The notes under the pieces: generated by a model
Told to the model about the DNA's origin: nothing
Database searches by the model: none
Seen by the model: the letters and a program-made list of their open reading frames with translations, nothing else
Made by a program: the position numbers and the translations under genes
In this document: positions 2,621 through 32,840 of the stretch, in pieces
Position numbering within the stretch: the stretch's first letter is position 1
Layout: every line of letters starts with the position of its first letter
Assembly (NCBI GenBank): GCA_904501795.1
Contig: CAJGCK010000001.1
Span: 1-47,452, forward strand
Direction of reading: 5' to 3'
Source: an uncultured Clostridia bacterium
GTDB taxonomy: Bacteria > Bacillota > Clostridia > Christensenellales > Borkfalkiaceae
DNA: 47,452 nt

Positions 2621-3646
2621 ATGCAAGAACAATTTAACAACGTAAAACAAAGCGCAATTATCGACTTAGAAAACGTTTCGTCTATGCGTGAAATTAACGA
2701 TTTAAAGGTGAAATACGTTGGTAAAAGCGGTCTAGTTACTTCGCTTTTACGCACTATGAAAGATATTGCACCCGAAATGCGCTCTACTTTTGGTAAAATG
2801 GTTAACGACTTAAAAGAAGAAGTTTTGTCTCTTTTTGCGCAAAAAGAAACGTTACTTAAAGAAAAAGAACTAAAAGAACGTTTTGAAAGAGAGAAAATAG
2901 ACGTGACTTTACCCGGAAAAAGCCAAACAATAGGTAGTTTGCACCCATTAAATATTGTTAAAAACAAGATTTTAAACGCATTTTGCGGTATGGGTTTTGA
3001 AATATTTGAGGGGCCGGAAATAGACACGGATTATTATTGTTTCCAAGCACTAAATATTCCAAAAGATCACCCGGCAAGAGATATGCAAGACACCTTTTAT
3101 TTTACAGAAAATATTTTATTGCGTCCGCATACTTCTCCTGGACAAGTTAGGACAATGGAAAATAAAAAACCACCTATTAAAATCTTAAGCCCAGGTAAAG
3201 TTTATAGGGCGGATGACGACGCTTCTCACTCACCAATGTTTCACCAAATAGAAGGTTTGGTTGTAGATAAAGGCGTTTCACTTTGTGATTTGAAGGGTTT
3301 ACTTGATGAATTTGTTAAAATTATGTTTGACGACGATACTAAAACGCGTTTTCGCCCGTCGTTTTTCCCGTTTACCGAACCTAGTGTAGAAGTTGACGTT
3401 ACTTGTTGTAAATGCCACGGCAAAGGTTGTAGTTTATGTAAAGGGACGGGTTGGATAGAAATTCTTGGCGCAGGTATAGTTAATAAGAACGTTTTAGAGA
3501 TGAGCGGAATTGATTCTAACGAATATTCGGGACTAGCCTTTGGTTTAGGTGTTGAAAGAATTACCATGATTAAATATGGAATTTCGGATATTAGAACGTT
3601 ATTTGAAAACAACGTCAAATTCTTAAAACAGTTTAATAGGAGATAA
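2621..3646 (+). CDS. pheS: Phenylalanine--tRNA ligase alpha subunit
   Basis: Class II aaRS motifs and the CCKCHGKGCSLCKGTGW zinc knuckle typical of Firmicute PheS. I start it at ATG 2621 (GGAGG 2611-2615), not at the ORF-track TTG 2609, which lies in the terminator T-run. Confidence 0.95.
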   Translation: MQEQFNNVKQSAIIDLENVSSMREINDLKVKYVGKSGLVTSLLRTMKDIAPEMRSTFGKMVNDLKEEVLSLFAQKETLLKEKELKERFEREKIDVTLPGKSQTIGSLHPLNIVKNKILNAFCGMGFEIFEGPEIDTDYYCFQALNIPKDHPARDMQDTFYFTENILLRPHTSPGQVRTMENKKPPIKILSPGKVYRADDDASHSPMFHQIEGLVVDKGVSLCDLKGLLDEFVKIMFDDDTKTRFRPSFFPFTEPSVEVDVTCCKCHGKGCSLCKGTGWIEILGAGIVNKNVLEMSGIDSNEYSGLAFGLGVERITMIKYGISDIRTLFENNVKFLKQFNRR

Positions 3647-3649
3647 AAA

Positions 3650-6052
3650 ATGAAAGCACCACTTTCTTGGTTAAAAGATTTTTGTGATATAGATTGCTCG
3701 GCAAGTGAATTAGAAGCAAAATTATTCTCTTGTGGTTTTGAAGTAGAAGAAACCGTTTATTTTGCAAAGAATATTGAAAAAATAGTTACTTGTAAAATAT
3801 TAAGCATTGATAAGCACCCTAACGCTGATAAGTTATCCGTTACAATGGTTGACGCGGGTCAATATGGCAAAAGGCAAATTATTACCGCTGCAAAAAATAT
3901 TTTTCTTGGCGCGGTTGTTCCTGTTGCGTTAGACGGTGCAACTCTTTTTAACGGCGATAAGATTTATAATGGTGAACTTCGTGGTCTTCCTTCTTTCGGA
4001 ATGTTTTGTAGTGGGGAAGAATTAGGTATTAATGACGATTGGTACGAAGGCGCATCTGTTAACGGAATTTTAATTTTAGACCAAAACTTTCCACTTGGCG
4101 TTGAAGTTAAAGAATTGCTTGAATTAGAAGACGTTATATTTGACATAAACGTAACCGCAAATCGCCCTGATTGTCAGTCGATTTTAGGTTTGGCAAGAGA
4201 AGTGTCGGCAATACTTGGTAAACCGTTTAAGGCACCCGATTTATCATTTGATTTTTCTAAAAATGTATCTACAAAAGGCACCATCAAAGTAAATAATCAT
4301 GCAACCGATTTATGTTACAGATACATGTCAAAGCTTGTAAAAGACGTTAAAATTGAAAAGTCACCAACTTGGCTTAGAAGAAGATTGTTTTCAATGGGCG
4401 TTCGTTCAATAAATAATATAGTCGACATAACTAACTACGTATTACTTGAAATAGGTCAACCTATGCATGCTTTCGATCTAAACTTCTTAAAAGGTAACGA
4501 AATTAACGTAAGACGTGCTAATGAAAATGAAAAAATAGTTACTCTTGACGAAAAAGAGTTTACTTTAACAAACAAAAACTTGGTAATAGCCGATGCTGAA
4601 AGCCCCGTTGCTTTAGCCGGAGTTATGGGTGGACTTAATAGCGGAATAAATCAAGATACAAAAGATATTGTTTTCGAATCGGCAACGTTTGCTAGAGACA
4701 ATATTAGAAAAACGTCTCGTTCGCTTGGTCAACGTTCTGATTCTTCATCAAGGTATGAAAAGGGTATTGATCCGTATACTGCAAAAATCGGTTTGTATAG
4801 AGCGCTACATTTAATTTCTAAATTAAACGCCGGTAAAATTGCTTTTGATGAATACGATTTACTAGAAAAACCTATTGAAAACAAGATTATTAATACCAAA
4901 CTTTCTAAAGTAAATGAAGTTTTAGGGATTGATATACCGAAAGAAACGGTTGAAAATATATTAAATAGATTGTTTTTTAACGTAAAAATTAACGGGGATA
5001 ATATGGAAATTATTGTTCCGCCGTATAGAGAAGACGTTGAAAGTTACCCGGATATTGCTGAAGAAATAATAAGAGAATATGGATATGATCATATTACCCC
5101 AACTTTACTTAAAACTTCTAAGATAACCAACGGTGGCAAAAACAATGAACAGCAATTTAATGATAATCTTAAAGATTTATTAGTTGGCTTTGGTTTTAAT
5201 GAAATTATCACTTATTCTTTTGTTTCCGAAAAAGAATACCAATTATTTGGTATAGAAAAAAATGCTCCCGAGCATAAATTTATAAAAATACTTAATCCTT
5301 TAGGCGAAGACCTTTCAGTTATGAGAACAACGCTTATTCCATCGATTACAAGAATAGTAGGCGCTAACCTTAATAGAAAAAATAATGAGGGCAGGCTTTT
5401 TGAAATCGCAAAGGTCTATTATACTGAACAAGACCAACTAACAAAACTACCTGTTGAAAAAACAAATCTATCAATAGCATTATTTGGCGAAAATGAAGAT
5501 TTTTTCACTACAAAAGGTGTTGTTGAAGGTGTTTTATCAACCTTTGTTTTTGGGGCAAATATCGAGTATATTCCTTGCGATTTGAACTTCATGCATCCAA
5601 CCCGTTCGGCTTTTGTTAAAGTAGACGGCGAAATTTTAGGATATATAGGGCAATTATCACCGATTGTTTTAGAAAAACTTGGTATAGATAAGCCCATTTA
5701 CATTGGAGAGATTTACCTTGACATATTAAAAAATAAATTACGTGATAAAATAGTATACGCGCCTGTCTCTAAATTCCCAATCGTTGAGCGCGACCTTGCT
5801 ATTTTAGTTGATAAAGATTTACCTTGCGCTAAAATTGAAAACTGCATCAAACGCAACGCAGGGGGGAATTTAACAGAACTTAAATTGTTCGACGTTTATC
5901 AAGGCGAACAAGTTGATAAAAACAAAAAAAGTATGGCGTTTAATTTGATTTTCGTTTCAAACGAGCGTACTTTAAGCGTAGAAGAAATTGACCAAGCTGT
6001 AAACAACGTTCTTACGGCGCTTGAAAACGACTTAAACGCAAAACTGAGATAA
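3650..6052 (+). CDS. pheT: Phenylalanine--tRNA ligase beta subunit
   Basis: 800 aa with the N-terminal MKAPLSWLKDF and tRNA-binding domain typical of PheT. AGGAG RBS. It directly follows pheS. Confidence 0.95.
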   Translation: MKAPLSWLKDFCDIDCSASELEAKLFSCGFEVEETVYFAKNIEKIVTCKILSIDKHPNADKLSVTMVDAGQYGKRQIITAAKNIFLGAVVPVALDGATLFNGDKIYNGELRGLPSFGMFCSGEELGINDDWYEGASVNGILILDQNFPLGVEVKELLELEDVIFDINVTANRPDCQSILGLAREVSAILGKPFKAPDLSFDFSKNVSTKGTIKVNNHATDLCYRYMSKLVKDVKIEKSPTWLRRRLFSMGVRSINNIVDITNYVLLEIGQPMHAFDLNFLKGNEINVRRANENEKIVTLDEKEFTLTNKNLVIADAESPVALAGVMGGLNSGINQDTKDIVFESATFARDNIRKTSRSLGQRSDSSSRYEKGIDPYTAKIGLYRALHLISKLNAGKIAFDEYDLLEKPIENKIINTKLSKVNEVLGIDIPKETVENILNRLFFNVKINGDNMEIIVPPYREDVESYPDIAEEIIREYGYDHITPTLLKTSKITNGGKNNEQQFNDNLKDLLVGFGFNEIITYSFVSEKEYQLFGIEKNAPEHKFIKILNPLGEDLSVMRTTLIPSITRIVGANLNRKNNEGRLFEIAKVYYTEQDQLTKLPVEKTNLSIALFGENEDFFTTKGVVEGVLSTFVFGANIEYIPCDLNFMHPTRSAFVKVDGEILGYIGQLSPIVLEKLGIDKPIYIGEIYLDILKNKLRDKIVYAPVSKFPIVERDLAILVDKDLPCAKIENCIKRNAGGNLTELKLFDVYQGEQVDKNKKSMAFNLIFVSNERTLSVEEIDQAVNNVLTALENDLNAKLR

Positions 6053-6054
6053 TT

Positions 6055-8418
6055 ATGTTTTCGGCAAAAACTCTTAAAGCAATTGAATATGATAAAATTT
6101 TGTCGCAATTAAGTGATTGTGCAGTATTAAGCTCAACTAAAAATGAAATTTTATCGTTCAATCCCGTTTCGGATCTTTCTGAAGCGGAGTTTTTGCTTAG
6201 AAAAACAAAGGAAGCCTATTCGCTTTTGTATAAGTATAATTTAAATGGGGTTTATTATTGTGCAGACGTTTCTGAATACTTAAAAAGGGTAGACCTTGGC
6301 GGAACGCTAATAAACGGCGAACTAATTAGAGTTGCAGAGCATTTAAAAAGCGCAAGAATTATTAAATCGGCTATAGAATCGGTTAACGACGAAAATATCG
6401 TTATAACCCGAGATATTGCAAAAAATATTTTCACTAACATAGAATTTGAAAAAGAAATTTCATCAAAAATTATTTCAGAAGACGAAGTTAGTGATAACGC
6501 TTCGCCAAAACTATATTCGATTAGAAAATCCATTAGGAATATAAATACTAAAATTAGAGAGCAATTAAATTCGTATATACGTGGCAACACTTCTAAATAT
6601 TTACAAGACGGAGTTGTTACTATGCGAAGAGATCGCTACGTAATACCCGTTAAAAGCGAATATCGTAGTTTTATTAAAGGTTTTATTCACGACCAGTCTT
6701 CGTCCGGCGCAACTGTGTTTATCGAGCCTGAACACGTTATGGAATTAAATAACCAACTAAAAAGCGCTATGTTCGACGAAGCAAACGAAATTAGAAGAAT
6801 TTTAGCTGAATTATCTTCTAAAATTTCATTTATGTCGGACGGTATTAGAAATAACGACGTAATTTTAACTCAGCTTGACAACTGTTTTGCAAGAGCAATA
6901 TATTCGTTTAATAATAAATGCACCGAGCCTATATTAAATGATAAAGGCGTTATAAAAGTATATAACGGTCGCCATCCGCTAATCAACAAAAATAAAGTAG
7001 TCCCAATTAATCTTGCGATAGGTGAAAAATATAACTTTTTGCTTATTACGGGGCCTAATACGGGCGGTAAAACAGTTACGTTAAAACTCACGGGGCTTTT
7101 TTCACTCATGGCGATGAGCGGTTTGTTTTTGCCCGCTGAAAGTGGAACGGTTGTGTCGGTTTTTAATGGTGTTTTTGCCGACATAGGTGATGAGCAAAGC
7201 ATAGAAAACGATTTATCAACTTTTTCTTCGCATATAAAAAATTTAATAAATATATTAGACAATGCAAATGAAAAATCTTTGGTGTTGCTTGATGAAATTG
7301 GTGCGGGGACCGATCCTGAAGAAGGTAGCGCCATAGCGCTTTCTATTATTGAAAAATTACTTGAAAAAAATTGTTTTGGAATAATTACCACTCATTATTC
7401 AAAGCTAAAAGAATACGCTTTAGGAAACGGCAAGATTGAAAATGCGAGTATGGAATTTGACTCCAAGACACTTAAACCGCTTTATAAAATTAATATAGGA
7501 ATACCAGGTAGTTCAAACGCAATTGAAATTGCCTCTACTTTAGGACTAGACAAAGAAGTTATTGAAAATGCACTATCGCATTTATCAAGCGATAAAATTT
7601 CATTTGAAAAAGTTCTAAAAAAAGCGGAAGAAAGTAGGATTGAAAACGAAAAACTTCGTTTGGAATTGCAAAAAATTATAGATCAAAAAGAAAACGAACT
7701 ATCACTGATTTCAATTGAGAAAGATAAAATTATTAAAGAAAGAGAAAGAATTTATAACACTGCAAAACAAGAAACTAAGCGAATTGTCGCCGATAAACTT
7801 TCCGAAGCAGAAGAGATTATAGCTGAACTTAAAAACATACTAAAAATTGCGGGTCTTGAATGTAGGGAAGTAATTAAAGCTTCTGAACTAAGAAATCGTT
7901 TGGCAAATAGCAAATATCTTTCAGCCGATATTGACCAAGCACCTATTGAATTAAAGCCGGTTAACGTTCAATCGCTTAAAAAAGGGAACAAAGTTTTTGT
8001 AAAATCACTTAATTCATACGCAATAATAAACCAAATTAAGCAAAATAAACGCGAAGTTGAAGTTTTAATTGGCAATGCGAAATCCGTTGTGTTAATTAAA
8101 GATTTATTCAACAACCAAGAAGTCAAAAAAGAAAACGTTAAAATTAACGTTTCTAAACGCACGTTATCTAACGCTGTAATTAGAGAAATTAATATTTTAG
8201 GTAAAACATCTTTAGAAGCTATCACTGAGATTGAAAAATTTATTGACCATGCAGTCGTGAATGGCGTTGAAGAAGTGAAAATTATCCACGGTATAGGTGA
8301 AGGTGTATTACTAAAAACCGTTAGAGAATTTTTAAGGAAAAATAAAAACGTTTTAGAATATAGACGTGGGGTATACGGCGAAGGTGAAAACGGCGTTACC
8401 ATTGTAAAATTAAAATAA
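6055..8418 (+). CDS. mutS2: Endonuclease MutS2 (MutS-like ATPase with C-terminal Smr domain)
   Basis: 787 aa with Walker A GPNTGGKT, DEIGAGTDP, a coiled-coil middle and a C-terminal Smr-like IIHGIGEGVL. Confidence 0.9.
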   Translation: MFSAKTLKAIEYDKILSQLSDCAVLSSTKNEILSFNPVSDLSEAEFLLRKTKEAYSLLYKYNLNGVYYCADVSEYLKRVDLGGTLINGELIRVAEHLKSARIIKSAIESVNDENIVITRDIAKNIFTNIEFEKEISSKIISEDEVSDNASPKLYSIRKSIRNINTKIREQLNSYIRGNTSKYLQDGVVTMRRDRYVIPVKSEYRSFIKGFIHDQSSSGATVFIEPEHVMELNNQLKSAMFDEANEIRRILAELSSKISFMSDGIRNNDVILTQLDNCFARAIYSFNNKCTEPILNDKGVIKVYNGRHPLINKNKVVPINLAIGEKYNFLLITGPNTGGKTVTLKLTGLFSLMAMSGLFLPAESGTVVSVFNGVFADIGDEQSIENDLSTFSSHIKNLINILDNANEKSLVLLDEIGAGTDPEEGSAIALSIIEKLLEKNCFGIITTHYSKLKEYALGNGKIENASMEFDSKTLKPLYKINIGIPGSSNAIEIASTLGLDKEVIENALSHLSSDKISFEKVLKKAEESRIENEKLRLELQKIIDQKENELSLISIEKDKIIKERERIYNTAKQETKRIVADKLSEAEEIIAELKNILKIAGLECREVIKASELRNRLANSKYLSADIDQAPIELKPVNVQSLKKGNKVFVKSLNSYAIINQIKQNKREVEVLIGNAKSVVLIKDLFNNQEVKKENVKINVSKRTLSNAVIREINILGKTSLEAITEIEKFIDHAVVNGVEEVKIIHGIGEGVLLKTVREFLRKNKNVLEYRRGVYGEGENGVTIVKLK

Positions 8419-8433
8419 TTTTGGAGAAATAAA

Positions 8434-9021
8434 TTGAGAGAAATTTTTTATGAAGAAACTGCTGAAGTAATAGAAAAAAGCAAAAATAGAAAAAAATACA
8501 ATTTATGTACTTTTTTTACATATTTTTCGTGTTTTTTAATTATTTTACTTTTGTTTGTTTATATTTTTACACTAGATTTATCGCTAGTATTTAACGGTTT
8601 AGTGTTATTAAACGTTATATTAGCCTTTTTGCCAATAATTTCACTTATAGCTACAGCGATTTTTTTATCTAGGTTTAGAAATAGATTTAACGTTGATTAT
8701 GATTACATTTTTGTTACTGGGTCAATTACGGTTTCAAAAGTAATTAATAATATTAAAAGATATGTAGTTATTAAATTTGAATGCAAACAAATTGAAAAAT
8801 TAGGTAAATTGGGTAGCAAAACTTTTGAAAAGTATGCAAATTTACCAGATTTAAAACCTAAAATTCTTTCGCAAAACGTTACCGCACAAGATGGAAAAGG
8901 GTTCTATTACATGGTAGTTAACAACAAAGATGGAAAACATTTATTAGTTTTTGAGTGTAGCCAAACCTTTATTTCTAACGTAATTAGATTTTGTAATTCT
9001 ACGATTTTAGAAAAGGAATAA
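8434..9021 (+). CDS. Hypothetical 2-TM membrane protein
   Basis: 195 aa. TTG start 8434 with GGAGA 8423-8427. Two hydrophobic helices (about aa 25-80) are followed by a soluble, Lys-rich C-terminal domain. I recognise no family. Confidence 0.5.
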   Translation: MREIFYEETAEVIEKSKNRKKYNLCTFFTYFSCFLIILLLFVYIFTLDLSLVFNGLVLLNVILAFLPIISLIATAIFLSRFRNRFNVDYDYIFVTGSITVSKVINNIKRYVVIKFECKQIEKLGKLGSKTFEKYANLPDLKPKILSQNVTAQDGKGFYYMVVNNKDGKHLLVFECSQTFISNVIRFCNSTILEKE

Positions 9022-20338: not shown

Positions 20339-21533
20339 TCTAATTAACAAATGCCAAGAAAAATTACGCGATAAATTTAATGAAATAGAAAAAATAGCAC
20401 TTTTTAACCAAGAAAAAGTACTAAATGCATTTAAAAATAATAAAATTGCTTTAAGACACTTTGTATCAACAAACGGTTATGGTTACGGTGACGAAGGTCG
20501 TGACACGCTAAATCAATTATTTGCCGAAGTTTTTAAATCTGAATCTGCAATTTGCTCGCCATACATAGTGTCGGGCACTCACGCGTTGGCACTTTGTCTT
20601 TTTGGTGTGTTAAAAAACGGTGATACCATGTTATCAATCGTTGGAAATCCTTATGATACGTTAAACGACGTTATTAACGGCGAAGATAACGGTTCTCTTG
20701 CTGATATAGGTGTTAATTTTGATAAAATTAAACTAATAAACGGGCAGTTTAACAAACAATCAATTGCAGATTATTTGAAGAATAAAACGCCTAAAATGGT
20801 ATATATACAACGTTCTAGGGGCTACGAATGGCGAAACGCATTATCTATCGCTCAAATAAAAGACGTTGTAGAGTTTTTAAGGGAGCTTAACTTTAAGGGT
20901 TGTATTATGGTTGACAACTGTTACGGTGAGTTTATAGACTATAAAGAACCGATTGAAGTAGGCGCTAATCTTATTGCGGGATCATTAATAAAAAACCCCG
21001 GTGGAGGCATAGCCCCAACAGGTGGTTACGTGGCGGGCGATAAAGTTTACGTGGATAAAGTCTTAAACCGCATGACCGCACCGTCTATCGCCGGTGAAGT
21101 AGGCTCTTATTTGGCAGGGTACGGTTTATATTATCAAGGTTTATTCCTTGCACCTCACACCGTTTCACAAGCAGTTAAAGGCTCTATGATAATAGGCGCA
21201 GTTATGAATGAATTAGGATACGAAGTGTCTCCAAGCATAAACGAACTACCTGGCGATATTATACGCGCAATTAAGTTTAACGATAAAGATAAGTTAATAC
21301 AATTTATACAAAATATTCAAGCAAATTCACCGGTCGACAGTCACGTTTTGGCGCTTCCTTGGGCAATGCCTGGCTATCAAGACGAAGTAATTATGGCTGC
21401 GGGTTGTTTTGTTCAAGGCTCGTCAATTGAATTATCTGCAGATGCACCAATAAAACCGCCTTATATCGGTTATTTACAAGGCGGTTTAACGTACGAACAC
21501 TGTATTATAGCATTAAAAAATATGAATTTGTAA
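20325..21533 (+). CDS. Methionine gamma-lyase family / aluminium-resistance-type PLP protein (YnbB-like)
   Basis: 402 aa. Family recognition is by overall similarity, from memory, to the YnbB / Met_gamma_lyase family that commonly follows miaA in Firmicutes. Confidence 0.7.
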   Translation: MIDSNLINKCQEKLRDKFNEIEKIALFNQEKVLNAFKNNKIALRHFVSTNGYGYGDEGRDTLNQLFAEVFKSESAICSPYIVSGTHALALCLFGVLKNGDTMLSIVGNPYDTLNDVINGEDNGSLADIGVNFDKIKLINGQFNKQSIADYLKNKTPKMVYIQRSRGYEWRNALSIAQIKDVVEFLRELNFKGCIMVDNCYGEFIDYKEPIEVGANLIAGSLIKNPGGGIAPTGGYVAGDKVYVDKVLNRMTAPSIAGEVGSYLAGYGLYYQGLFLAPHTVSQAVKGSMIIGAVMNELGYEVSPSINELPGDIIRAIKFNDKDKLIQFIQNIQANSPVDSHVLALPWAMPGYQDEVIMAAGCFVQGSSIELSADAPIKPPYIGYLQGGLTYEHCIIALKNMNL

Positions 21534-22127
21534 TTAAAACTTTCTAATCAATCCTTTCACAACGCCTATGATTTCAACGTTATCGAAAACCATATCGCTC
21601 ATTTGACTGTTTTCAGGGCGTAAAATTACTTTTCCACCTTTTAAAACAAGTCTTTTAACAGTTGCTGCATCATCAATCATTGCGACTACGATTTGACCAT
21701 TTTCGGCAACGTTTTGCTTGTTAACGATAATAACGTCTCCTTCAAATATTCCGGCGTTTATCATACTATCGCCAACAACTTTTAAGGCAAATTCCTCTCC
21801 ATTTAATAAAAAATCGTTTGACAAGGGGAGATAGCCTTCGATATTTTCTTCAGCAAAAATAGGTGCGCCGGCGCGGATAGTACCAACAATCGGCACGTTC
21901 TTGGCGTTCTTATTGTTATTAGCTACCGATATGGCCCTTTTTTTAAGAGGAGACTTCTCTAATAAACCACGTTGCTTTAATTTTTCAACGTAAGAGTAGG
22001 CGGTTGCGGTTGACTTAATGTTTAGTTTTTCACAAATTTCTCTGATAGACGGGGGATAACCGTTGTTATCAACGTAATCTAAAGTGAAATTGTATACGCT
22101 TAAAATTTTATCTTCTATATTTTTCAT
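21534..22127 (-). CDS. lexA: LexA repressor
   Basis: 197 aa with an N-terminal wHTH, the Ala-Gly cleavage region RAGAPIFAEE, the S24 peptidase motif VVGDSM and a downstream Lys. Its own promoter carries a LexA box. Confidence 0.92.
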   Translation of the reverse strand: MKNIEDKILSVYNFTLDYVDNNGYPPSIREICEKLNIKSTATAYSYVEKLKQRGLLEKSPLKKRAISVANNNKNAKNVPIVGTIRAGAPIFAEENIEGYLPLSNDFLLNGEEFALKVVGDSMINAGIFEGDVIIVNKQNVAENGQIVVAMIDDAATVKRLVLKGGKVILRPENSQMSDMVFDNVEIIGVVKGLIRKF

Positions 22128-22133
22128 ATCTTA

Positions 22134-22162
22134 ATTATATCAAAATTTTATTTAGATGTCAA
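22134..22162 (-). promoter_or_regulatory. Consensus sigma-A promoter of lexA, positioned for a leaderless transcript
   Basis: On the minus strand: TTGACA (22162-22157), a 17-nt spacer, TATAAT (22139-22134), 6 nt (TAAGAT), then ATG at 22127. There is no SD. Confidence 0.65.
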
Positions 22163-22173
22163 ACAAACGTTCG
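22160..22173. promoter_or_regulatory. LexA (Cheo/SOS) box
   Basis: CAAAC-AAAC-GTTCG has one mismatch to the Gram-positive consensus CGAAC-N4-GTTCG. It overlaps the lexA -35 by 3 nt. Confidence 0.6.
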
Positions 22174-22197
22174 TAATTTATTAATCAAGGAGCAAAA

Positions 22198-22365
22198 ATG
22201 AAAGAAATTAAATGTGTTAAATACGATAGAATATGTATCGATTGTGGGGAATGCGACGAGTTTTGCGACCTTAACCCCGAAAAAAAGTGCGATAGTTGTG
22301 GAAAATGTATTAGCACCGATAAAAACTATAAAATTATTAAAATTACTAAAATTATAGAAAAATAG
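22198..22365 (+). CDS. Unannotated small Cys-rich protein (55 aa, 8 Cys), divergent from lexA
   Basis: ATG 22198 preceded by AAGGAG 22187-22192 with a 5-nt spacer; TAG 22363-22365. Translation: MKEIKCVKYDRICIDCGECDEFCDLNPEKKCDSCGKCISTDKNYKIIKITKIIEK. It is absent from the ORF track only because it is under 60 aa. Confidence 0.5.
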   Translation: MKEIKCVKYDRICIDCGECDEFCDLNPEKKCDSCGKCISTDKNYKIIKITKIIEK

Positions 22366-22366
22366 T

Positions 22367-23434
22367 TTATTTCTCGGGATTTTTTCCTGATATATCAACG
22401 GATAATCCTGCTCTTTTTCTTGAATCTTCACTAATTGCCGCATAATGACGGCGCGTTGTATTAATGTCTCTATGACCAAGGCAATCGGCAACAATATAAA
22501 TATCACCAGTTTGTCTATAAAGGTTAGTACCAAACGTGCTTCGAAGCTTATGTGGCGATATTTTTTTTAGGGGAGACACGATTCTAGCGTACTTTTTAAC
22601 AAGTTCTTGAACTGTTCTTGTAGCAATTCGCTTTTTTTGTAGAGATAAAAACAGTGCTTTTTCATCCTTGCCAACCTTTTTATCGCCATTTCTTTGTTCA
22701 ACATAATCTTTTAATGCCTCATTAACTTGATTATTAAAATATAAAACAGCACGATTTCCGCCTTTTCGCGTAACAACAAAACTATTCGTAGGTAAATTAA
22801 TATCATCTACGTTTAAGCCAACCAACTCGCTAATACGAATTCCCGTGCCTAAAAATAAGGTAATAATGGCGATATCCCTAATTTTAGACGATTTATGAAA
22901 GTTCATTTGTTGTTTTGTTAGGCCGGAACCCGACTCAACAACGTACAAAAAATCACTCACTTCGTCAACTTTATCGTTCCTATCAAGCCTAATAATCTCT
23001 TTTTCATGAATTTTTGGCGTTGTAACTTTAGTCGGAATATTCGCAGATAAAACGTTTTTATTGAAAAAGTACTTGAAAAATGCGCGTAGGGTAGATAATT
23101 TACGTGCTTTTCCAGTCTCAGTACATCTTTCTTCCTTGCCATTTATGGTGTAATGACTTAAATAACTTAAAAAATATTCTATGTCTGTTGACTGCAGTTT
23201 CTCAAGATCGTCTAAGGCAATATAGGGCACAGACTTATCTCTAAAAACCTTTTTTGACAAAAAATCAAAGAAAATTCTTAAATCATATCCATAATTAAGT
23301 CTTGTTAAAGGGGACGTTCTTAATTCAACACCTATAAAAAAGTCCCTTACGTAATAAGGAAGCGTTTCTATAATATTATTCAATCTTTCAATACACGAAA
23401 TTTCTCTTTTTTCAAAGTACGATTTTTCAGCCAT
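22367..23434 (-). CDS. Tyrosine site-specific recombinase (Xer-like)
   Basis: 355 aa with an N-terminal SAM-like core-binding domain. The full catalytic set is present: R (GTGIRISEL), K (TRKGGNR), H-x-x-R (PHKLRSTF), H (LGHRD) and Y (RRHY). GGAGG RBS at 23446-23450. Confidence 0.85.
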   Translation of the reverse strand: MAEKSYFEKREISCIERLNNIIETLPYYVRDFFIGVELRTSPLTRLNYGYDLRIFFDFLSKKVFRDKSVPYIALDDLEKLQSTDIEYFLSYLSHYTINGKEERCTETGKARKLSTLRAFFKYFFNKNVLSANIPTKVTTPKIHEKEIIRLDRNDKVDEVSDFLYVVESGSGLTKQQMNFHKSSKIRDIAIITLFLGTGIRISELVGLNVDDINLPTNSFVVTRKGGNRAVLYFNNQVNEALKDYVEQRNGDKKVGKDEKALFLSLQKKRIATRTVQELVKKYARIVSPLKKISPHKLRSTFGTNLYRQTGDIYIVADCLGHRDINTTRRHYAAISEDSRKRAGLSVDISGKNPEK

Positions 23435-23499
23435 AGAGTAAAAACCTCCATTATTTTATTAGCATTTTTATTTCTTTGACGTGTAGGGCACACATATCG

Positions 23500-23533
23500 A
23501 ACTATGCGCAAAACACAACTTTTACGCATAGTT
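23500..23533. repeat. Near-perfect 14-6-14 inverted repeat; candidate recombinase core site, operator or 5'-UTR hairpin
   Basis: AACTATGCGCAAAA (23500-23513), CACAAC (23514-23519), TTTTACGCATAGTT (23520-23533). The arms are complementary at 13 of 14 positions. It lies 66 nt upstream of the recombinase ATG. Confidence 0.8.
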
Positions 23534-23546
23534 AAACCTTGAAAAT

Positions 23547-23575
23547 ATAATATCATATATAATTTGTTTTGTAAA
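23547..23575 (-). promoter_or_regulatory. Possible sigma-A promoter for the recombinase gene
   Basis: On the minus strand: TTTACA (23575-23570), a 17-nt spacer, then TATTAT (23552-23547). This would place the 14-6-14 repeat inside the 5' UTR. Confidence 0.4.
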
Positions 23576-23754
23576 TACGTTTTTAAAATTTATTTAATAA
23601 TTTCTTTATTTATTTTCTAACAAATATTTTTAATTAATTTTTCCTTTTTGTTAATCAGTTAAATTTAAAAAAATATTTATTAATTTATTTTTTTGTTATA
23701 AAATTATGTAATTTTAGAAAACGTTTGTAAATTACTTGTTATTTTTAAGGCTTT

Positions 23755-23769
23755 TTATGTCTGACATAA
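23755..23769. promoter_or_regulatory. Short perfect palindrome upstream of the PadR-like gene promoter (possible operator)
   Basis: TTATGTC-T-GACATAA contains the ATGT/ACAT half-sites typical of PadR operators, but with N3 rather than N8 spacing. It ends 22 nt upstream of the -35. Confidence 0.3.
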
Positions 23770-23790
23770 TTATAAAATTTTATTTATATC

Positions 23791-23819
23791 TTGACTGCAA
23801 ACAAAAATATATGTATAAT
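23791..23819 (+). promoter_or_regulatory. Sigma-A type promoter of the PadR-like gene
   Basis: TTGACT 23791-23796, a 17-nt spacer, then TATAAT 23814-23819. GGTGA RBS before ATG 23849. Confidence 0.6.
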
Positions 23820-23848
23820 TAAATAAAAAAAGTAGATTTTGGTGATTT

Positions 23849-25132
23849 ATGGATAATAAAGCAATTAGTAGTGATTTAATTCGTGGACATATTGATACGA
23901 TTATTTTACACGCATTATTAAACGGTAATAAATTTGCCGGTCAAATAAGCGAATATATCGAAGAAAAAAGCAATGGCGAATATAAAATCAACCAGGCTAC
24001 CCTATACAGTTCGCTTAAACGACTAGAAAACTTAAAATATATTAGTGGATATTGGCAAGACGCGCCAACTGGAAGAAGAAGATTTTTTAGATTAACCGAG
24101 CTTGGCAATCAAACCGTTTCAAATAATTTATCAAATTGGGAATACTCAAGAAAAATTATTGATAAATTAATGGATTTTGATTATACACCGTCACAAAAAA
24201 TTGTAGAAAAGGTTGTTTACGTTACTACGCCACAACAAAATGAAAAAATTAATATCGAAAATAGCAACTTCACTCTTCAATTAAATTCATTAAATTCTAC
24301 AGAAAACGATAAAACTAAAAATGAATTAAAAGAAAACCAAATAAGTCAAGAAAAAAAGCAAAACGATGTTGAAGAAGTTAATTTTAGAAATATTTTATAC
24401 GGTTTAATAAAAACTCAAAACTTAAACAACACGAAAAACGAACAAATTTTAATCAATTCAAACGATAACCCAAAAATCAATCAAATAATTGATAAAAATG
24501 TTGCCAGTAAGCACGAGAGCAACGAAATTTTTCTTGAAAAAGACAAAAAGATTGATTTTAATACCGCTGTAAACGATTCTAGATCAAATATTAACTTAAA
24601 AAATTACGATTCAACTGGAAGAATTGACTATAATCAAATGATTTCTACCGCCGAAAAAGACGGTATGAAAATTAAATTTTCTACAAAAGAAACAAAAACC
24701 ACTACAGGCACGACTTTAATTAACAAACTTTCGGTTTGTTCGGCAATGGTTGTTTTCTTATTGGTTTTATTAGAATATTTAGTTATTACGATTAATTTTG
24801 CTCAATTATTAAAGCCTTCTGCAGTGTTTATTTTGGTAAGTTTATTAATTTTTGTATCATTTCCAGTGCTTGAAGCAATAAGATTTTTTAAATCACCTAA
24901 TAAGATGTCTAAAACGATTTCCAAAGATTCGATTATTACTTCACTAATCGTTGTATTTAACTTGTTACTAATAACATTTGTTATTAATTTGTTTTTAGGC
25001 TTAGATTTTAGTAACTTATTTAACTCGATTTTGTTCTTTTATACGCCTTGTTTGTTGTTTGTAAACGTTTTTATTTTTTATTTAGTTAGATTTCTACTAT
25101 CTAAATTGCCAAATTTTAACGTAAAAAAATAG
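23849..25132 (+). CDS. PadR-family wHTH regulator fused to a low-complexity linker and a 4-TM C-terminal domain
   Basis: 427 aa. The N-terminal roughly 95 aa (IRGHIDTIILHALLNG...ATLYSSLKRLENLKYISGYW...RRFFRLTELG) is PadR-like. About 170 aa are N/K/Q/E-rich. Four hydrophobic helices occupy the last roughly 150 aa. Confidence 0.75.
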   Translation: MDNKAISSDLIRGHIDTIILHALLNGNKFAGQISEYIEEKSNGEYKINQATLYSSLKRLENLKYISGYWQDAPTGRRRFFRLTELGNQTVSNNLSNWEYSRKIIDKLMDFDYTPSQKIVEKVVYVTTPQQNEKINIENSNFTLQLNSLNSTENDKTKNELKENQISQEKKQNDVEEVNFRNILYGLIKTQNLNNTKNEQILINSNDNPKINQIIDKNVASKHESNEIFLEKDKKIDFNTAVNDSRSNINLKNYDSTGRIDYNQMISTAEKDGMKIKFSTKETKTTTGTTLINKLSVCSAMVVFLLVLLEYLVITINFAQLLKPSAVFILVSLLIFVSFPVLEAIRFFKSPNKMSKTISKDSIITSLIVVFNLLLITFVINLFLGLDFSNLFNSILFFYTPCLLFVNVFIFYLVRFLLSKLPNFNVKK

Positions 25133-25140
25133 AAAGTTAA

Positions 25141-32753: not shown

Positions 32754-32787
32754 AATTTCCTCCTTAAAATATTTTAGGTAAAAATAC

Positions 32788-32826
32788 AAAAATTATGCAT
32801 TATGTGTGACATAATGCATAATTTTT
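32788..32826 (-). terminator. Long AT-rich hairpin after spoIVB (probable terminator)
   Basis: A 17-bp perfect stem AAAAATTATGCATTATG / CATAATGCATAATTTTT with a 5-nt loop, lying between the spoIVB stop (32841) and the carboxypeptidase start. Confidence 0.5.
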
Positions 32827-32840
32827 TAGTTTGTATTTTT

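Follow-up and report, generated by a model that had tools for sequence, protein, structure and literature searches.

A candidate dif-type site beside a recombinase gene

What is the function of a 34-bp near-perfect inverted repeat that lies just upstream of a tyrosine recombinase gene? This question is raised by a 47,452-nt stretch from an uncultured Clostridia bacterium (GenBank assembly GCA_904501795.1, contig CAJGCK010000001.1), called the window below, meaning the whole stretch that was analysed. An earlier note on this DNA had read the repeat as a core site of the Xer/dif type and had named three alternatives to be excluded: an operator, an RNA hairpin, and one end of a mobile or invertible element. 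Our analysis supported the Xer/dif reading. The repeat has a conserved architecture and occurs as a single copy per locus beside orthologous recombinase genes, in a fixed orientation relative to them; it coincides with the GC-skew switch at the terminus, is independent of the neighboring genes, and is a place of natural phage integration. It is highly probable that the 34-bp repeat is the dif-type site at which the adjacent XerS-like recombinase resolves chromosome dimers, and that site and gene form a module at the terminus of the chromosome of Christensenellales-like Clostridia. The features on which the following sections rely are given here with their positions in the window.

23500 to 23533, no strand: 34-bp dif-like core site, with two predicted recombinase-binding arms of 14 bp flanking a 6-bp central (crossover) region
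23500 to 23513, no strand: gene-proximal arm, AACTATGCGCAAAA, which is TTTTGCGCATAGTT in the gene orientation; the better conserved of the two arms
23514 to 23519, no strand: central region CACAAC (GTTGTG in the gene orientation), the presumed strand-exchange region
23520 to 23533, no strand: gene-distal arm, TTTTACGCATAGTT, read from the window sequence and the alignment of related sites
22367 to 23434, minus strand: 355-aa tyrosine recombinase of the XerS-like family, the presumed enzyme for the site, assigned by Pfam, NCBIfam, catalytic residues, and Foldseek

Geometry and statistics of the repeat

The repeat had been described as AACTATGCGCAAAA-CACAAC-TTTTACGCATAGTT, with 13 of 14 arm positions complementary, located 66 nt upstream of the recombinase gene in a 414-bp intergenic region. 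These values were correct: the exception among the arm positions is C23509 versus A23524, the 66 nt is an offset, the gap from the site to the ATG being 65 nt, and the intergenic region runs from 23435 to 23848. The site was also said to be rich in GC for its surroundings and to have no second full copy in the window, and both statements held. Its GC content is 35.3% versus 18.4% for the intergenic region (16.8% when the site is left out), and the next-best arm matches in the window carry two or three mismatches, at the chance rate (13 found versus 12.2 expected). Inverted repeats of the 14-6-14 type with at most one mismatch numbered three in the window versus 0.05 expected per simulated window; therefore, the 34-bp repeat is nonrandom. 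The other two, at 25138 and 37694, are A/T-flanked and resemble terminator hairpins. As we see it, an inverted repeat is by itself not diagnostic of the type of site; it is the comparative data that are diagnostic.

Conservation of the site with its recombinase gene

Two sets of related loci were compared. The gene-first set consisted of 80 GTDB species-representative loci encoding relatives of the recombinase at 56 to 75% protein identity, labeled Christensenellaceae, Candidatus Borkfalkia, Candidatus Scatosoma, or "Clostridia bacterium." The site-first set consisted of at least 120 metagenome contigs carrying the motif. Individual loci are designated by L and a number. Of the 80 GTDB loci, 75 carry the motif TAT[G/T]CG[T/C]AAAA-N6-TTTT[G/A]CG[C/A]ATAG on the upstream side of the orthologous gene, and some of the five loci without it are truncated near the gene. 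One copy each was present in 76 of 81 sources (the 80 loci plus the window); shuffled loci gave 0.7 matches in total. From the other direction, among the matches listed, 53 of 120 motif contigs encode a recombinase of the family, at 34 to 71% identity to the window protein, and the 5' end of the gene points toward the site in all 53. Thus, the two checks proposed earlier, retention of the motif next to orthologous recombinases and the distinction from a dispersed generic repeat, both turned out in favor of a site belonging to the recombinase.

The site has several of the properties by which dif sites are recognized (Carnoy and Roten 2009; Kono et al. 2011). One is a pair of arms around a center of 6 to 8 bp; the site is 14-6-14 in the window and has the same geometry in 76 sources. 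Another is a noncoding location, with neighbors that may vary; the site is intergenic, clades differ in the genes around it, and L032 has the module in the inverted orientation. Outside the search pattern, arm positions carry 0.75 to 1.8 bits each, while the center is variable and the flanks are at background. The center is always 6 bp long, and its sequence differs between genomes (GCCGTG, GCTGTG, GTTGTG, CAATGA, TTAGGC, and others). Conservation is stronger in the proximal arm than in the distal arm (9.8 versus 7.5 bits over the outer seven positions, which lie outside the search pattern), and the distal arm is degenerate in several genomes, e.g., L008, L009, and L029. Some conservation was also seen beyond the proximal arm.

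23483 to 23494, minus strand: conserved proximal flank, with T-G-T at +6 to +8 from the arm (23494 to 23492) and a CCCTAT-like motif, here CCCTAC (23488 to 23483)

The three bases at +6 to +8 carry 0.7, 0.5, and 1.1 bits, respectively. A strand-specific CCCTA/CCCCAT-like motif was present 9 to 35 nt outside the proximal arm in 36 of 76 flanks versus about 3 in random windows.

The distance from the site to the gene was mostly 45 to 500 nt, with a full range of 45 to 5,756 nt; the site lies 1.1 kb from the gene in L055, 1.7 kb in L040, and 5.8 kb in L049. Such distances bear on the idea that the palindrome is an operator for a dimeric regulator, either the divergently encoded PadR-like protein or the recombinase acting as an autorepressor only, with no recombination involved. 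This idea fits the palindromic form of the site and its place between divergent genes, a short way downstream of a promoter-like match for the recombinase gene; it also fits the neighboring PadR-family gene, seen both in the window and in 28 related loci. However, of the 61 loci that have the site and 2 kb or more of upstream sequence, 33 retain site and recombinase but lack a PadR homologue within about 6 kb. The site is also found at skew switches without a nearby recombinase gene and on phage genomes, and an operator does not explain the direct-repeat copies that flank integrated phages (see below). Site and recombinase gene are inverted as a unit in L032, and their neighbors (the PadR gene and a small Cys-rich open reading frame [ORF]) are unchanged, which suggests that site and gene behave as a module. 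On the basis of this joint inversion and the 33 loci without a PadR gene, the PadR operator was rejected, and we consider an operator in place of a recombination site very improbable.

Autoregulation in addition to recombination by the dif-type site is a separate matter, and it involves the following feature.

23547 to 23575, minus strand: sigma-70-like promoter match, TTTACA-17-TATTAT, TG-extended, upstream of the site; a consensus match only

The TTTACA/TATTAT pair pointed out in the earlier note is present on the minus strand at 23575 to 23547, but such matches were no commoner than in shuffled sequences, and this one is not kept at a fixed position in other loci. If this promoter is used, the site would lie at about +7 to +40 of the recombinase transcript. 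The recombinase bound at the site may then also regulate its own gene, so that autoregulation is possible.

A recombinase family sister to XerS

The product of the adjacent gene contains a Phage_integrase catalytic domain and a SAM-like N-terminal domain, both recognized by Pfam. It resembles XerS in that its gene adjoins the site, its length is 355 aa, and its R-K-H-R-H-Y catalytic set is complete; R200, K224, H295, R298, H321, and Y331 were invariant in 25 orthologues. With the NCBIfam models, it scored 211 bits for XerS (cutoff, 267), 156 for XerC, 155 for XerA, and 142 for XerD, and the XerS alignment spanned nearly its full length. The XerC and XerD scores were below the membership cutoffs of 335 (TIGR02224) and 330 (TIGR02225) bits. 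Ten further site-linked members, at 44 to 71% identity to the window protein, were tested as well, and XerS was the best NCBIfam model for 11 of 11 members including the window protein, with scores of 177 to 218 bits, all below 267. A best score for XerS that stays below the cutoff argues for a sister family rather than for XerS.

Against solved structures, phmmer gave 75 bits for XerA, 66 for XerD, and 37 for XerH (5JJV). A Foldseek search with an AlphaFold model (predicted local distance difference test score, 75.6) returned XerA, XerH, and XerD as the first matches; the template modeling scores were low because of the two-domain geometry, and the three were not told apart. The protein database holds thousands of relatives at 72 to 79% identity, and the named ones come from uncultured Clostridia, Clostridiales, and Christensenellaceae. 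Judged from these comparisons, the protein is a Xer recombinase of the conserved housekeeping type, and its family is a sister of XerS, not XerS proper, a kinship read from NCBIfam model scores.

Position at the predicted replication terminus

Sites of the dif type lie at the replication terminus, and coincidence of the repeat with the GC-skew switch had been proposed as a check. The region concerned is as follows.

21418 to 23533, no strand: from the cumulative G-C maximum to the site, replication-terminus region; no genes inside other than lexA, a 55-aa Cys-rich ORF, and that of the recombinase

In the window, the GC skew is +0.09 on the left and -0.15 on the right, its sign changes around the site, and the cumulative maximum is at 21418. 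Up to about 21.5 kb the genes lie on the plus strand, and from about 25 kb onward they lie on the minus strand. We take this strand switch together with the skew pattern to be the signature of a replication terminus. The coincidence was not confined to the window. Among related loci with at least 3 kb on each side, the skew went from positive to negative across the site in 35 of 51 and in the opposite direction in 1, and it was weak in the rest. Of the listed metagenome contigs, 21 extend 2.5 kb or more to each side of the site; the gene is present on 11 of them, and 10 of these 11 showed the positive-to-negative switch.

At three further sites (L132:5043, L187:2723, and L224:4179), the motif lies at a skew switch between convergent genes, with no recombinase gene within 2.7 to 5 kb on either side. 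Therefore, the site follows the terminus and not merely the gene, and the two are unlinked in some lineages.

The genomic context also bears on the possibility that the recombinase is an integrase and the repeat one att end of a mobile element, or that the repeat bounds an invertible segment whose partner lies outside the window. In favor of this are the generic annotation of the gene as integrase-family, the inverted pairs of this site type in some metagenomes, and the phages that carry the site. However, the window is core chromosome. On the lexA side, the genes are pheT, mutS2, a class A penicillin-binding protein gene, miaB, mutS, mutL, miaA, a methionine-gamma-lyase-family gene, and lexA; the opposite side carries the PadR-like gene, rluB, dacB, ytfJ, lysA, and recN. 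The synteny of the housekeeping genes (mutS, mutL, miaA, and lexA on one side; rluB, dacB, ytfJ, lysA, and recN on the other) is conserved, the recombinase gene is itself conserved at 56 to 79% across very many genomes, and no mobile-element genes are adjacent in the window. Together with the single site per locus in 76 of 81 sources and its position at the skew switch, this synteny disfavors an element end, to which we assign hardly any likelihood.

The arrangement of the neighbors is not the same throughout. In a more distant clade (L035 to L080, versus L002 to L031), the rluB-dacB-ytfJ block is on the opposite side of the site, and a PadR gene is missing.

Phages integrated at the site

Among IMG/VR viral contigs, 27 carry the motif. 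The recombinase gene is included in just two of the loci fetched (L098 and L106), and the remaining 25 stretches retrieved gave no sign of a tyrosine recombinase. L106 (IMGVR_UViG_3300010882_000235) shows, in this order, the methionine-gamma-lyase gene, lexA, the recombinase gene, the site, a 4.9-kb Microviridae genome, and a degenerate second site. The provirus (3567 to 8507) encodes a replication initiator, the major capsid protein (in two ORFs), a DNA pilot protein, and a scaffold protein, and no integrase was found in it. The site copy at 3567 is good, and those at 8474 and about 8518 are degenerate. Inoviruses, recognized by a rolling-circle Rep and a Zot/pI-like ATPase, occupy the same position in L085:498-5987, L098:2390-5700, L115:5407-12116, and L171:333-7422, at 1.3 to 1.8 kb from the recombinase gene. 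In these loci too, the site copy nearer the recombinase gene is good, and the far end has one or two degenerate copies, spaced by about 107 nt. L226 has a 6.2-kb insert beside the gene; its two bounding copies share 20 identical nucleotides, i.e., one arm and the center, and the other arm differs. PHROG annotation of this insert was uninformative.

None of these integrated elements encodes a tyrosine recombinase. Integrase-less phages with single-stranded DNA (Microviridae and Inoviridae) flanked by two copies of the site are a signature of elements exploiting Xer. The arrangement of an integrase-less element between a dif and a dif-like copy, as in an integrative mobile element that exploits Xer (IMEX), was seen in five related loci (L106, L085, L098, L115, and L171) and not in the window. 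The same pattern is known from CTX-type phages, from Bacteroidetes microviruses, and from the element that revealed the Legionella dif site (PMC9765430 for Legionella). L106 represents an integration of the IMEX type in a Gram-positive anaerobe. No other line of evidence points as strongly as the phage insertions to the 34-mer being a functional crossover site, which the host enzyme would use in trans.

Other phages also carry the site. Tailed-phage contigs with a near-perfect copy are L082, L087, L093, L094, L099, and L105 from IMG/VR and L183 and L202 from metagenomes. The terminase large subunit accounted for 7 of the 10 site-adjoining proteins tested on tailed-phage contigs (6 of 9 loci), and in L099 the site lies between the primase gene and the terminase large-subunit gene. 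The tailed-phage stretches retrieved did not contain a tyrosine recombinase, and these phages may use the host enzyme, either to integrate or to resolve multimers.

A different arrangement consists of pairs of sites 126 to 170 nt apart, as in L167:4873-5034 and L126:4632-4834, and also in L123, L124, L166, L179, L182, L185, and L216. The metagenome-accession prefixes are the same for L123, L126, L166, L167, L179, L182, and L185. In the L167 and L126 pairs, the centers are mutually reverse-complementary, so that the copies are inverted around a nonpalindromic segment of 94 to 135 nt. No recombinase gene is nearby in the paired-site loci. These inverted pairs look like small invertible DNA switches.

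Observations weighing against a dif-type site; the RNA alternative

Several observations weigh against the reading of the repeat as the dif site of a XerS-like recombinase. Neither the window protein nor any of the ten other site-linked members reached the XerS membership threshold (NF003462, an equivalog model). The skew maximum of the window is 2.1 kb away from the site, 13 of the 51 related loci had weak skew of the same sign on both sides, and gene orientation is a confounder of local skew. Because inverted pairs occur in other metagenomes, the site type is not exclusive to dimer resolution. Finally, if the repeat is transcribed, its stem would be stable (-26 kcal/mol; z = -2.5), and the commonest noncomplementary arm position is a G-U wobble in the mRNA sense (42 of 76 sites).

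The last two properties would be expected of an RNA hairpin in the 5' untranslated region of the recombinase mRNA, controlling its stability, attenuation, or translation. The promoter-like match just upstream of the site and the changes on both sides together at positions 7/28 and 2/33 also suit a hairpin. This covariation of the arms was not taken as evidence of RNA structure because one protein reading two half-sites predicts joint change equally; moreover, the two main states follow two clades. A hairpin also does not account for a sequence that is itself fixed: the A4/T4 tracts and the CG are identical in all sites across 56 to 100% protein identity. Arm positions 10/25 vary independently (Fisher p = 1.0) and the outer positions are mismatched in 18 to 25% of sites. 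The distance to the start codon varies over more than 5 kb (45 to 5,756 nt), the site is also found away from any recombinase gene and on phages, and a search of Rfam with 23300 to 23950, both strands, at E ≤ 1 gave no match. All of this disfavors a hairpin as the explanation of the repeat, and we regard it as extremely unlikely; an additional RNA-level role of the site is possible and counts among the points against the dif-type reading.

Comparison with known Xer systems

The dif-type module was compared with known Xer systems. XerS/difSL of Streptococcus and Lactococcus (Le Bourgeois et al. 2007, PMC1914069; Nolivos et al. 2010, PMC2965235) is similar in several respects. XerS has 356 aa versus 355 here, the recombinase gene is directly beside its own dif-type site, and the module is at the terminus. 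The inner arms share a ..CG(N)AAAA / TTTT.. pattern, and there are extra conserved bases beyond the minimal site on one side. The arms given in PMC5357621 are ..CCGAAAA / TTTTC.. for difSL and ..ATGAAAA for difH, to which the A4-N6-T4 core here is similar. However, difSL is a 31-bp site with unequal arms and a center described as up to 11 bp, whereas the site here has 34 bp, near-identical 14-bp arms, and a clear 6-bp center, and the hosts here are uncultured Christensenellales-type Clostridia, not Streptococcaceae. The best match to difSL in the window had 10 mismatches out of 31, so the site does not conform to the difSL consensus, and the dif sites of Bacillus subtilis and Escherichia coli and difSL, when searched for in the 47-kb window, had at least 10 mismatches in every match.

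XerH/difH of Helicobacter and Campylobacter (Carnoy and Roten 2009, PMC2731167; Bebel et al. 2016, PMC5241119) likewise consists of a single long Xer protein (354 to 362 aa) and a site near its gene, with two arms and a variable 6-bp center. The left arm, AGTTATGAAAA, resembles A[A/T]CTATG(CGY)AAAA, XerH is among the top structural matches of the window recombinase, and an asymmetry between a strong and a weak arm dictates the order of events in that system. The difference in conservation between the proximal and distal arms here recalls the strong and weak arms of dif, difSL, and difH. In contrast, the sequence similarity to XerH is weak (37 bits versus 75 for XerA and 66 for XerD), which does not indicate a close relationship; the arms here are 3 bp longer and far more symmetric; and the phylum is different.

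XerL/dif of Legionellales (PMC9765430) also combines a single recombinase with long, nearly uninterrupted inverted-repeat arms. Its dif was recognized through a mobile element that mimics it and integrates there, and the phage integrations here are parallel to this. However, xerL and dif are more than 400 kb apart in Legionella, whereas gene and site are usually adjacent here, and the protein families differ.

The two-recombinase system of XerC/XerD and the canonical 28-bp dif (E. coli; CodV/RipX of B. subtilis) shares the fold, the catalytic residues, the arm-6 bp-arm geometry, the terminus location, one better-conserved arm, and exploitation by integrative elements (IMEX). It differs in that the arms here are near-identical, the gene is beside the site, and no canonical dif is present in the window. 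Near-identical arms argue for one protein rather than two paralogues, and it is this symmetry that points to a single homomeric recombinase.

Proposed mechanism

By analogy with XerH/difH and XerS/difSL, each 14-bp arm would be bound by one recombinase monomer, and two sites on a chromosome dimer would synapse as a tetramer. Tyr331 would cut at the boundaries between arm and center, 6 bp apart, and two sequential pairs of strand exchanges via a Holliday junction would resolve the dimer to monomers. The reaction would be licensed at the septum, probably by an FtsK/SpoIIIE-type translocase.

Polar 8-mers converging on the site, of the kind of FtsK-orienting polar sequences or SpoIIIE recognition sequences (KOPS/SRS), were searched for in the pooled loci. 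Those found are G-rich and fully polarized, e.g., AGGGGAGA at 67:0. They were not counted as evidence, since Shine-Dalgarno sequences, genes co-oriented with replication, orthologous loci, and the one conserved CCCTAT-type motif beside the site all confound the signal.

Novelty and significance

The single-recombinase Xer systems recognized in the literature searched are XerS, XerH, XerA, and XerL, and no description of a XerS-like or other single-recombinase Xer system in Christensenellales or other Clostridia was found there. The system is very probably an addition to the known Xer systems in which the recombinase gene is beside its site, here in uncultured gut Clostridia. A wider proposal is more doubtful, and we consider it less likely than not: that the XerS-sister recombinase and its near-symmetric 34-bp site are the only dimer-resolution system in Christensenellales and relatives, a large order of gut Clostridia that is mostly uncultured, and a fifth single-recombinase Xer system, that they are a general entry gate for Microviridae, Inoviridae, and tailed phages with the site beside the terminase gene, and that the site type has been co-opted as inverted pairs for inversion switches.

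The known single-recombinase systems have been informative on how a homomeric enzyme achieves order and directionality at a nearly symmetric site and on control by FtsK. The family described here would add a widespread example from abundant, health-associated, and poorly cultured gut Clostridia, and the unusually symmetric natural site suits structural and mechanistic work. The site could also mark the terminus precisely when metagenome-assembled genomes of the clade are to be assembled and oriented. That diverse phages carry or target the same site was an unexpected side result. As an attachment site, it would provide a handle for host prediction for gut Microviridae, Inoviridae, and some motif-carrying tailed phages.

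Other features of the window

The longest inverted repeat of the window is at 32779 to 32835 (27 nt, 85% complementary, with a 3-nt spacer). It is located between two minus-strand genes, one of which encodes a dacA-like carboxypeptidase.

Between lexA and the recombinase gene, a 55-aa Cys-rich ORF (22198 to 22365, plus strand) contains four CxxC-type pairs and had no Pfam match. It is divergent from lexA and is kept in 35 related loci. The 70-nt spacer between lexA and this ORF contains a LexA-box-like sequence, CAAACAAACGTTCG, at 22160 to 22173. In Bacillus, this genomic position is that of SOS-induced division inhibitors.

The PadR-like protein encoded on the other side of the site (23849 to 25132, plus strand) is unusually long, with 427 aa. 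It consists of a PadR winged-helix domain (residues 19 to 90), a low-complexity linker rich in N, K, and E, and a hydrophobic C-terminal part that resembles several membrane spans.

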